Under the pieces are notes generated by a model. That model made no database searches. It worked only from the letters and a program-made list of their open reading frames with translations, and was not told the origin of the DNA. This document shows, piece by piece, positions 21,881 to 24,466 of a stretch of 64,000 bases of DNA. A program made the position numbers and the translations under genes. Positions within the stretch are counted from its first letter, which is position 1, and every line of letters starts with the position of its first letter. This stretch comes from Escherichia coli. Lineage in GTDB: Bacteria; Pseudomonadota; Gammaproteobacteria; Enterobacterales; Enterobacteriaceae. Location: NCBI RefSeq assembly GCF_003018255.1, contig NZ_CP027440.1. One strand, 5' to 3'.

Positions 21881-24466
21881 ATGTGGAACCTTTTACGGCG
21901 AACCCGAAAAAACCAGAAATCAGGACGTGACGTAAGAGAGGAGGGCTGGACCAGCCTGTTTCAGGCGGTGGCTGAGCCCTTTTCCGGCGCCTGGCAGCAG
22001 GGCGTGAAAGCCGATCCTGAAGCCGTCCTCTCCTTTCATGCGGTGTTTGCATGTATTTCGCTGATATCCCAGGATATCGCCAAAATGCGGCTGCGTCTTA
22101 TGCAGACGGATGCGCATGGGATACGCAGGGAAACGCGCCGGGGGGATATTGCCCGCCTCTGTCGTCGCCCCAATGCGCAGCAGAACCGCATTCAGTTTTT
22201 TGAACTGTGGCTGAACGCCAAACTGCGTCACGGCAATACGGTGGTGCTGAAAATCCGTAATGCCCGGGGGCAGATCAAAGAACTGCGTATTCTGGACTGG
22301 AACCGGGTTGAACCTCTGGTGGCGGATGACGGCGAGGTGTTCTACCGCATCACGCCGGACCGGAACTGCGGGATCACTGAGGCGGTGACGGTGCCTGCCC
22401 GGGAAGTGATCCATGATCGGTTTAACTGTTTTTTTCATCCGCTTATAGGGTTGCCGCCGGTGTATGCCGCCGGGCTGGCGGCCACGCAGGGGCATCATAT
22501 TCAGGAAAATTCGACGTCTTTTTTCAGAAATGGCGGCAGGCCGTCCGGGGTGATTGAGATCCCCGGCAGTATTACGGAAGAAAATGCGAAAAAACTGAAG
22601 AGCAACTGGGACAGCGGGTATACAGGCGAAAATGCGGGGAAAACGGCCATTCTGAGCAACGGGGCAAAATACAACCCCACGACGTTTTCACCGGTGGATG
22701 CGCAGACGGTGGAACAACTGAAGATGACCGCTGAAATTGTCTGTTCGGTGTTCCGTGTTCCGGCCTACAAGATTGGCGTGGGACAACCGCCTTCCAGTGA
22801 CAATGTGGAGGCGCTGGAGCAGCAGTATTATTCCCAGTGCCTGCAGACGCTGATTGAGTCCATTGAACTGTTACTGGATGAGGCGCTGGAAACGGGGGAA
22901 AACGAGAGTACGGAATTTGATGTCACCACGCTGCTGAGAATGGACAGTGAGCGGCGCATGAAAACGCTGGGGGATGCGGTGAAAAATACGCTTCTCACGC
23001 CCAATGAGGCCCGTAAACGGGAGAACCTGCCGCCCCTGGCCGGCGGAGATGCACTGTATCTTCAGCAGCAGAACTACAGTCTGGAGGCGCTGTCCCGTCG
23101 TGATGCCCGTGAGGATCCGTTCGCGTCGACCGGGAAAACGGCCTTAGCGCAACCGCCTGACGGCGCATCTGACGGTAATAAGGCAATCACTGAAACAGAG
23201 CATGATGCGGTGAAGGCGATGTTCAGGGGGGATACTGCGAAAATGACGGAACGGGAACTGTCCATTATCCGTGCGCTGGGTGAAGAATTTTCCGCAGTGC
23301 TGGCGGATTTACAGCGCACATTTGAGGGGAAAATAGCCGCGCAGGCACAAACGTTTGAAGAAAAACTGGCGTCCCTGTCTGTGGTATTACAGAAGTGCGT
23401 GACGGGCGATGATGTGCGTCCGATGCTTGAGCAGATGGTGAAGGAGGCGGTAAGCCATATCCCTGTTCCGCGTGATGGTCGTGATTACGATCCGGAAGTA
23501 CTGCAGAAGGCGGTGAATGATGCGGTCGCAAATATTCCGCAGCCGGCGGACGGTAAAAGTCTCACCCCGGATGATGTGCGTCCGATGCTTGAACAGATGG
23601 TGACAGAGGCAGTGAGCCATATTCCTGTTCCGCGTGATGGTCGTGACTACGATCCGGATGTTCTGCAGAAGGCGGTGAATGATGCGGTCGCAAATATTCC
23701 GCAGCCGGCGGACGGTAAAAGTCTCACCCCGGATGATGTGCGTCCGATGCTTGAACAGATGGTGAAGGAGGCGGTAAGCCATATCCCTGTTCCGCGTGAT
23801 GGTCGTGACTACGATCCGGATGTTCTGCAGAAGGCGGTGAATGATGCGGTCGCAAATATTCCGCAGCCGGCAGACGGTAAAAGTATCACCCCGGATGATG
23901 TGCGTCCGATGCTTGAACAGATGGTGAAGGAGGCGGTAAGCCATATTCCTGTTCCGCGTGATGGTCGTGACTATGATCCCGATGTTCTGCAGAAGGCTGT
24001 TCTGGATGCGGTGAGTGCCCTGCCGGCTCCGCAGGATGGGCGTGATGCCACTGCACTGGAAATACTCCCTGCCATTGACGATCAAAAATCCTTTCCCCGG
24101 GGCACGTATGCCACACACCAGGGCGGACTCTGGCGGGCGTATGAAAAAACGCACGGGATGCGGGGATGGGAATGCCTGGTTGACGGGGTGGCGGATATTG
24201 ACGTCAGCATTACGGGGGAACGGTCGTTCTCTGTGGTGATCCGGCAGAGCAGTGGTCAGTGTACGGAAAAAACATTTTCCCTGCCGGTGATGCTCTACCG
24301 CGGTGTGTTCAGAGCCGGTGAAACCTACCACCCCGGCGATACGGTAACGTGGGGCGGCTCGTTGTGGCACTGCAACAGTATGACCGGTGATAAACCCGGA
24401 GAAGCTCATTCATCAGGCTGGACCCTGGCTGCAAAACGTGGGCGGGATGCAGGAGGTGGAAAGTGA
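21881..24466 (+). CDS. portal protein with long repeat-containing C-terminal extension
   Basis: 861 aa; first ~420 aa portal-like (HK97 family); then four tandem 54-aa repeats and a C-terminal domain; start codon uncertain. Confidence 0.75.
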   Translation: MWNLLRRTRKNQKSGRDVREEGWTSLFQAVAEPFSGAWQQGVKADPEAVLSFHAVFACISLISQDIAKMRLRLMQTDAHGIRRETRRGDIARLCRRPNAQQNRIQFFELWLNAKLRHGNTVVLKIRNARGQIKELRILDWNRVEPLVADDGEVFYRITPDRNCGITEAVTVPAREVIHDRFNCFFHPLIGLPPVYAAGLAATQGHHIQENSTSFFRNGGRPSGVIEIPGSITEENAKKLKSNWDSGYTGENAGKTAILSNGAKYNPTTFSPVDAQTVEQLKMTAEIVCSVFRVPAYKIGVGQPPSSDNVEALEQQYYSQCLQTLIESIELLLDEALETGENESTEFDVTTLLRMDSERRMKTLGDAVKNTLLTPNEARKRENLPPLAGGDALYLQQQNYSLEALSRRDAREDPFASTGKTALAQPPDGASDGNKAITETEHDAVKAMFRGDTAKMTERELSIIRALGEEFSAVLADLQRTFEGKIAAQAQTFEEKLASLSVVLQKCVTGDDVRPMLEQMVKEAVSHIPVPRDGRDYDPEVLQKAVNDAVANIPQPADGKSLTPDDVRPMLEQMVTEAVSHIPVPRDGRDYDPDVLQKAVNDAVANIPQPADGKSLTPDDVRPMLEQMVKEAVSHIPVPRDGRDYDPDVLQKAVNDAVANIPQPADGKSITPDDVRPMLEQMVKEAVSHIPVPRDGRDYDPDVLQKAVLDAVSALPAPQDGRDATALEILPAIDDQKSFPRGTYATHQGGLWRAYEKTHGMRGWECLVDGVADIDVSITGERSFSVVIRQSSGQCTEKTFSLPVMLYRGVFRAGETYHPGDTVTWGGSLWHCNSMTGDKPGEAHSSGWTLAAKRGRDAGGGK
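23408..24055 (+). repeat. in-frame tandem repeat, 162 bp x ~4 (inside portal gene)
   Basis: Copies at 23408, 23570, 23732, 23894 encoding DDVRPMLEQMV(K/T)EAVSHIPVPRDGRDYDP(E/D)VLQKAVNDAVANIPQPADGKS(L/I)TP; last copy diverged. Confidence 0.85.

Follow-up and report, generated by a model that had tools for sequence, protein, structure and literature searches.

A 64,000-nt stretch of Escherichia coli DNA (contig NZ_CP027440.1; the whole stretch is referred to below as the window) carries a prophage in which a single open reading frame (ORF) of 861 aa, at 21881-24466, has been read as an unusually long portal protein. Comparison of this ORF with its relatives indicates that it is very probably a derived form in which two neighbouring head genes, coupled in translation, have been fused. 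The ancestral layout is a 454-aa HK97-family portal whose TGA stop overlaps the ATG of the next gene (ATGA). An extra G in the run AGGGGG(G)AT, 11 nt before that ATG, shifts the portal past its stop and into the downstream frame, which encodes a modular protein (hereafter the module) predicted to consist of a ~50-residue helix, acidic 27-aa helix-loop repeats and, at its C-terminus, a conserved beta domain. Each subunit of the portal would carry the module on its C-terminus in the fused allele. Alleles with five and six Gs in the run are called G5 and G6, and the features of the window gene, which is G6, are the following:

21881-24466, plus strand: fused ORF (portal plus module), 861 aa and a stop codon, with an ATG start and an end-to-end match to PHROG 2271 (2014 bits)
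21881-23242, plus strand: portal part, aa 1-454, with an HK97-family core at aa 45-388 and an acidic linker at aa 401-454
23226-23231, plus strand: G-run, six Gs here, which is also the Shine-Dalgarno sequence of the module, 11 nt upstream of its ATG
23243-24466, plus strand: module reading frame, 407 aa with its own ATG, a gene of its own in G5 alleles and, apart from the fused protein P0218, in every distant relative
23244-23246, plus strand: latent portal stop TGA (ATGA overlap), out of frame in G6 and in frame in G5
23243-23407, plus strand: N-terminal long helix of the module, module aa 3-53, with an AlphaFold2 predicted local distance difference test (pLDDT) score of 90-96
23408-24055, plus strand: four in-frame 162-bp units, i.e. 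eight 27-aa half-units of a helix and a PxPxDGxD loop, forming an acidic stalk
24056-24463, plus strand: terminal beta-rich domain, divergent CBM5/12-like, with a Pfam match at aa 811-833 of the fused protein

The first half of the ORF matches PF04860 (Pfam Phage_portal) over aa 54-382 (E 9.9e-81) and TIGR01537 (portal_HK97) over aa 45-388, covering profile positions 2-343 of 343 with 350.5 bits against a cut-off of 112.05. The solved portals closest to it by sequence, 9lbn_H (E 6.2e-29) and HK97 8cez_A (E 6.5e-20), both align with aa ~43-423 only. On these matches the portal part belongs firmly to the HK97 family of portals, ending in a linker (aa 401-454, isoelectric point (pI) 5.15) that is probably flexible. 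It shares with the HK97-family portals (HK97 8cez/8fql, 9lbn gp1 and RcGTA 6tba) the usual core size and the company of genes for TerL, protease-capsid and connector; it differs from them in that the window frame runs 407 residues further, outside any portal model, into what is a separate protein in most relatives. NCBIfam holds no model for the module, the Prokaryotic Genome Annotation Pipeline (PGAP) names the whole ORF 'phage portal protein' (WP_001365916.1), and PHROG 2271 ('portal protein') aligns from end to end (protein 1-859 against profile 1-859, E 0, 2014.5 bits). The original prediction had described a portal with a C-terminal extension of ~440 residues. A single long ORF with ~410 residues beyond the portal is indeed present in the window, and the portal profiles cover its first half only; the extra half, however, is not an extension but the adjoining gene, fused via one G.

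Many relatives are one base shorter than the window gene, and the difference is located in the G-run at 23226-23231. The G6 alleles of the window and of phage 2851 read ...AMFRGDTAKMTEREL... and continue for 407 more codons. In G5 alleles the portal ends ...KAMFRGILRK after 454 aa, and its TGA overlaps the ATG (23243) of a separate ORF starting MTERELS. The G5 state is found in PPompW_699, in Stx1a_99E13, in the isolated Shiga toxin (Stx) 1 phage BP-4795 and in the complete genomes L098 and L099, as well as in most Stx phages examined and many E. coli genomes. Comparison of the five named G5 alleles showed that all of them keep the AAAATGA overlap, the 454-aa portal and an intact downstream ORF. 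The two-gene arrangement also extends to relatives without a G-run: the portal ends ...KAMIRGFLTK in FSL SP-016 (Salmonella) and ...SLTKGLLK in the contig L005, both with an ATGA overlap, and ...GMLKGIPKNE in E. coli A34, with an 8-nt overlap of stop and start. All relatives examined have a GGA-type Shine-Dalgarno sequence 8-12 nt upstream of the module ATG. The gene pairs BP-4795 ORF58 + ORF59, PPompW_699_290/300 and SP016_00160/00155 are orthologous to the two parts of the window ORF and have the ATGA overlap of the ancestral two-gene state; they differ from the window ORF in their five Gs or lack of a run and in repeat number (5 units in BP-4795). That the C-terminal part might turn out to be a separate ORF, which the original prediction had allowed for, is thus true of BP-4795, PPompW_699, FSL SP-016, Rhizobium phage RHph_X2_26 and metagenomic relatives, but not of this sequence. 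The same fusion is present in phage 2851 (Pankowvirus), YYZ-2008, related Stx prophages and PHROG 2271, with 96% DNA identity, six Gs and four repeat units, and the window gene is another copy of this known fused allele.

We searched with the 407-aa module against 1.84 billion cluster representatives and obtained 5,597 relatives at E<=0.001 and 651 at E<=1e-30. The best 150 of these have a median length of 404 aa; a portal domain is present in 2, the terminal domain lies at the protein's own C-end in 148, and 143 start with Met. A word-indexed protein search gave no distant relatives of the module, its matches being dominated by partial E. coli draft fragments. Eight genomic contexts were examined (L005, L006, L007, FSL SP-016, RHph_X2_26, E. 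coli A34, L097 and P0218). In seven of them a portal gene of 443-467 aa is followed directly by the module gene, and in P0218 the two are fused. The fused case, P0218 (L092/L093 6001-9714), is an independent 1,237-aa portal-module fusion from an unrelated metagenomic prophage, in which ~24 Pro/Glu-rich (LPEPEPLPDI) repeats are followed by the same terminal domain as in the window module; it occurs in four contigs from separate samples, with an identical protein in JGI and ENA samples.

A tree of 82 E. coli-type alleles, built on their portal part, has G5 in all of its deep clades, G6 in three or more clades and on a number of flanking haplotypes, and a few G5 alleles nested within a large G6 clade; i.e. 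the state of the G-run differs between clades and occasionally within one. As read from this tree, the G-run has changed state, or was swapped by recombination, more than once. From the G5-frame terminus in distant relatives, the module family, its genomic contexts and the tree we conclude that the two-gene state came first and that the fusion is derived from it. The opposite direction, with the 861-aa portal as the original functional form and the G5 versions as frameshifted pseudogenes, is implied both by the original prediction and by PGAP, which labels G5 alleles 'phage portal protein, frameshifted' (some GenBank records have 'pseudogene'), and the full 859-aa architecture is what PHROG 2271 models. 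We regard this direction as very unlikely, given the G5-frame terminus with its ATGA overlap in FSL SP-016 and L005, the homologous terminus with its 8-nt overlap in A34, the 148 of 150 family representatives that lack a portal domain, the two separate genes of the isolated phages BP-4795, FSL SP-016 and RHph_X2_26, the filling of the deep clades by G5, and a downstream ORF that is intact in 28 of the 31 complete G5 loci.

The sixth G or the four-unit array could also be a sequencing or assembly error in this genome, as homopolymers and tandem repeats are classic error sites and many draft contigs break inside the gene. This is the least likely of the explanations considered, because an identical sequence is present in the complete genome of E. 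coli 2015C-3905 (CP027371), the independent IMG/VR contig L036 matches the protein at 100%, and the same G6, four-unit layout recurs in IMG/VR contig L009 and in phages 2851 and YYZ-2008. The assembly error that had been named as a possible refutation is hence contradicted by independent genomes and phages.

A third explanation is that the G-run is a regulated recoding or phase-variation site yielding the plain portal and the portal-module fusion in one population, either through ribosomal -1 slippage on AGG-GGG-ATA in G5 alleles or through frequent DNA slippage. On the G-run a P-site tRNA-Gly can move back by one base and still pair perfectly, and the codon that follows, ATA, is a rare one; the tree contains several changes of state, with G5 alleles nested in a G6 clade, and an independent fusion of module and portal exists elsewhere (P0218). 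In the 0 frame, however, the junction lacks a canonical X XXY YYZ heptamer, and a tRNA of the ATA-reading type is encoded by the prophage itself. The junction also differs among relatives (an ATGA overlap, a 16-nt overlap, a 14-nt gap, a 4-nt gap), as does the run, which is AGAGGA or AAAGGA elsewhere, so that no recoding signal is conserved. As for phase variation, contingency homopolymers are usually tracts of >=7-8 nt with high-frequency length changes within a clone, and five to six Gs are short for high-frequency switching; recombination among co-resident prophages (median 6 places per genome) can in turn explain the patchy distribution of the two states. We therefore think a regulated site improbable, although P-site slippage on AGG-GGG-ATA could still occur at a low level.

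Some points weigh against a derived fusion of two genes as set out here. The tree cannot distinguish recurrent slippage from recombination, and some G5/G6 calls in older IMG/VR drafts could be homopolymer errors. Our literature search turned up neither experimental data on the protein nor a publication dealing with the extension, fusion or module.

Both alleles are coding, living genes. Within complete loci the module ORF is intact in 28/31 G5 and 29/36 G6 alleles, and the portal part is intact in 82/82. With values of 0.12 (portal), 0.31 (module helix) and 0.19 (terminal domain), the ratio of non-synonymous to synonymous polymorphism (pN/pS) is equal in the G5 and G6 sets. Since the Shine-Dalgarno sequence is the G-run itself in E. 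coli and a conserved GGA-type motif in relatives, the fused allele keeps an intact internal start signal, and free module may still be made from the G6 allele by internal initiation at the intact ATG. A separate lesion is found in O157:H7 alleles (L004, L025-L027), which are G6 with a 1-nt deletion at the window-equivalent position 24355 (GTGGGGCGGC to GTGGGGGGC). This deletion truncates the terminal domain, the module stopping at 379 aa; it is a true frameshift and not part of the G5/G6 polymorphism.

The stalk of the module is encoded by the repeat array. Tandem Repeats Finder placed a 162-bp period at 23408-23997, counting 3.6 copies with 95% matches and no indels; the score of 1082 is far higher than chance would give. 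The 54-aa unit is itself double: an amphipathic helix and then an IPxPxDGxD loop make up each of its 27-aa halves. Units 1-3 agree with one another at 94.4-96.3% in DNA and share 52/54 residues, but unit 4 is only 76.5-78.4% identical to them (43-44/54 residues) because its last third has diverged. The array at 23408-24055 is therefore present as originally described, but as about three and two-thirds near-identical repeats instead of four, and differences of 4-6% between copies, and of ~23% for unit 4, do not fit a very recent expansion. The expectation that the repeats would be recombinogenic and give length variants was correct: comparison of copy number among close relatives revealed 1, 2, 3, 4, 5 and 7 units, corresponding to intact modules of 245, 299, 353, 405/407, 461 and 569 aa, in G5 and G6 backgrounds alike. 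In the wider module family the number of 27-aa units ranges from ~3 to ~25, and some members have Pro/Glu-rich or collagen-like repeats in their place. The protein database contains more than 100 'partial' portal fragments of 540-660 aa from draft contigs of 2-4 kb; short-read assemblies evidently end within or near this multi-copy gene, many of the breaks being due to its tandem repeats. A 340-aa antisense ORF (23387-24409, minus strand) runs across the array and is most likely a by-product of stop-free repetitive DNA, not a gene.

Two further roles were considered and set aside. A DNA-binding role was rejected as the stalk is strongly acidic (pI 4.4 and net charge -18 in the window; -12 to -74 in relatives) and the tip neutral. 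Elongated heads occur in Stx2c long-tailed phages (PMC12029490), and a role of the repeats as a head-length ruler was dropped because unit number has no relation to genome length among near-identical phages, with 3 units at 54.5 and 65 kb, 4 at 44 and 57 kb and 5 at 58 kb.

AlphaFold2 predicted the N-terminal helix, a stalk of eight short helices joined by 12-residue loops (pLDDT mostly 48-83) and a very confident beta-rich terminal domain, with a pLDDT of 93.5 when this domain was modeled alone. The terminal domain is Trp/Gly-rich, as had been noted, with 5 Trp and 20 Gly in the last 136 aa, and its predicted structure has the same fold as solved CBM5/12 domains; its neighbours in a viral structure library (BFVD) are collagen-repeat, ChiC_BD, CBM5/12 and tail-fibre proteins. 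PF02839 (CBM_5_12) matches the window protein below threshold (E 0.013, 0.005 or 0.0011 depending on query length, over 27/44 model positions) and matches the module family better (20/75 at E<=0.001, 54/75 at E<=0.1, best 7.3e-6). Compared with the CBM5/12 modules of ChiB, ChiC, ChiA1 and EGZ, the window domain is very divergent, lies within a 135-aa beta domain and has no enzyme attached. Pfam Collagen matches 5/86 relatives at E<=0.001 and 20 at <=0.1 and does not match the window protein, and PHROG tail-fibre profiles match the tips of module relatives. A sequence search of the PDB found no solved homologue of the module, and searches of Pfam, PHROG and NCBIfam gave no match on it to a MuF domain (PF04233, PF06152 or relatives). 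PF28083 on draft module fragments is a faint QatB match and was dismissed as noise.

The free module is probably a trimeric, fibre-like accessory protein and a partner of the portal vertex, in which the helix would anchor or oligomerise the protein, the repeats would form a length-variable spacer and the tip is predicted to bind a glycan. As to its site in the virion, we slightly favour an internal module docked on the portal crown, at a little under an even chance. The portal C-terminus points into the capsid in all solved portals. There have been two independent in-frame fusions to this terminus, E. coli G6 and P0218; these, together with the strict linkage to the portal gene and the conservation of the tip from E. 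coli to Rhizobium, argue for an internal module. Twelve extra 45-kDa modules would, by our estimate, take up about the volume of a few hundred bp of DNA, so that a fused portal is physically plausible. Phage 2851, which has the fused portal, was reportedly described by Strauch and colleagues in 2008 as forming free infectious particles. The recurrent fusion to an inward-pointing terminus is, however, opposed by the fibre-like build of the module (collagen-like relatives and a tail-fibre-like tip), which counts against an internal protein and favours an external adhesin.

An external accessory fibre (neck whisker or head fibre), aiding adsorption via the putative glycan-binding tip, is quite possible, though we hold it as the lesser possibility of the two; the fused allele would then be a tolerated accident in which function has possibly been lost, much as with the stf frameshift in laboratory lambda. 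Such a fibre would account for the segmented helical or collagen-like stalk of variable length, the CBM5/12-like tip with tail-fibre tips as its neighbours in structure space, the PHROG tail-fibre matches on relatives' tips, the Pfam Collagen matches and the position of the gene at the head-neck junction. It would not account for a linkage that is specific to the portal gene even where the downstream genes differ, for two independent in-frame fusions to the terminus facing the capsid interior, for the high conservation of the tip between E. coli and Rhizobium, which host-specific receptor binders do not show, or for the same purifying selection on the module in fused alleles.

Known systems offer partial parallels to either site. 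T4 fibritin (wac), the phi29 gp12* appendages and collagen- or CBM-tipped fibres likewise have a segmented stalk, a folded C-terminal tip and a gene beside the neck genes, but no homology to the module was detected. To our knowledge, these accessory, adhesin-like proteins are external and never fused to the portal C-terminus. The P22 portal barrel is a long helical C-terminal extension that projects into the capsid; it differs from the module in being an integral ~120-residue helix of the portal gene and not a fused neighbour with repeats and a beta domain. The genes of SPP1 gp7 and Mu gpF (MuF) lie directly downstream of the portal gene, as does that of the module, and these proteins are positional and possibly functional analogues of it, although they have no sequence or profile similarity to its helix, acidic repeats and CBM-like tip. 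SPP1 gp7 is a portal-binding protein that travels within the capsid (PMC5576092).

The element that carries the gene is a lambdoid (PPompW / phage 2851-like) E. coli prophage, integrated in the window at ompW, beside yciE/trp. The neighbours of the fused ORF are as follows:

19732-21669, plus strand: prohead protease (S78) fused to the major capsid protein, the upstream neighbour
21714-21935, plus strand: small conserved ORF of 73 aa (WP_001063099.1), overlapping the portal start by 55 nt
24463-24789, plus strand: head-tail connector (Ad1, Phage_connect_1), the downstream neighbour

The gene order TerS, TerL, protease-capsid, small ORF, portal, module, connector is that of the clade. The placing of TerL and protease-capsid ahead of the portal, which had been called atypical, is so only in comparison with HK97 itself and is conserved throughout the clade. 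Small ORFs also occupy the slot before the portal in L007 (73 aa), FSL SP-016 (55 aa) and L092 (53 aa).

Other observations concern the rest of the prophage. Its two tRNA genes, at 4984-5059 and 5069-5145, have the anticodon CAT (tRNA-Ile according to PGAP, of the ATA-reading type) and encode tRNA-Arg(TCG), respectively, and the G5 portal end AGG GGG ATA CTG CGA AAA TGA uses rare codons matching both. Downstream of Q and the tRNAs, a SASA-family carbohydrate esterase gene (NanS-p-like, 654 aa; 9138-11102, plus strand) occupies the position of stx in Stx phages; the annotation of the closely matching genome NZ_CP027371.1 contains no stx gene. The tail module contains an ompC-like porin gene (387 aa; 31235-32398, plus strand), flanked by the genes for a tail protein and for minor tail protein L. 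The window and NZ_CP027371.1 (L094) share a 100% identical portal gene but are not colinear elsewhere, features being offset by ~+240 nt up to ~15.5 kb and by ~+35 nt beyond ~35 kb; the window thus stems from another, closely related strain or copy of the prophage.

The gene, fused or split, is present in 1,246 of 5,426 complete E. coli genomes, and 93 phage records match it, mostly long-tailed Stx1a, Stx2c and Stx2a converting phages. The fused allele is already catalogued (PHROG 2271; RefSeq 'phage portal protein') and the mechanism is an ordinary one, i.e. a one-base gene fusion together with unequal recombination in the repeat array; the origin of the fusion, the mis-annotation that results from it and the function of the module family appear not to have been documented before. 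Both G5 two-gene alleles checked, L098 and L099, are annotated by PGAP as frameshifted portal pseudogenes. Conversely, free-standing modules without a portal domain are named 'portal protein' in PHROG 1289, in RHph_X2_26 (L090) and in E. coli A34 (L096), a label that arose by annotation transfer.

A further and rather doubtful possibility is that the module represents a large, uncharacterised family of portal-partner virion proteins, mislabelled in databases, for which the G-run acts as a heritable, slippage-prone switch between forms. If so, the G-run would switch a putative glycan-binding fibre between a free form and a portal-tethered form inside the capsid, altering virion display or ejection. 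For annotation, the frameshift flags could make prophages seem defective despite an intact portal, and repeat copy number, from 1 to 7, could be used for prophage typing. Alleles that occur naturally in both states, fused in phage 2851 and split in BP-4795, are a ready-made experiment on the site and role of the module. The analysis sets apart a very large portal-linked family with a CBM5/12-like tip, which is present in the long-tailed Stx-converting phages of enterohaemorrhagic E. coli.

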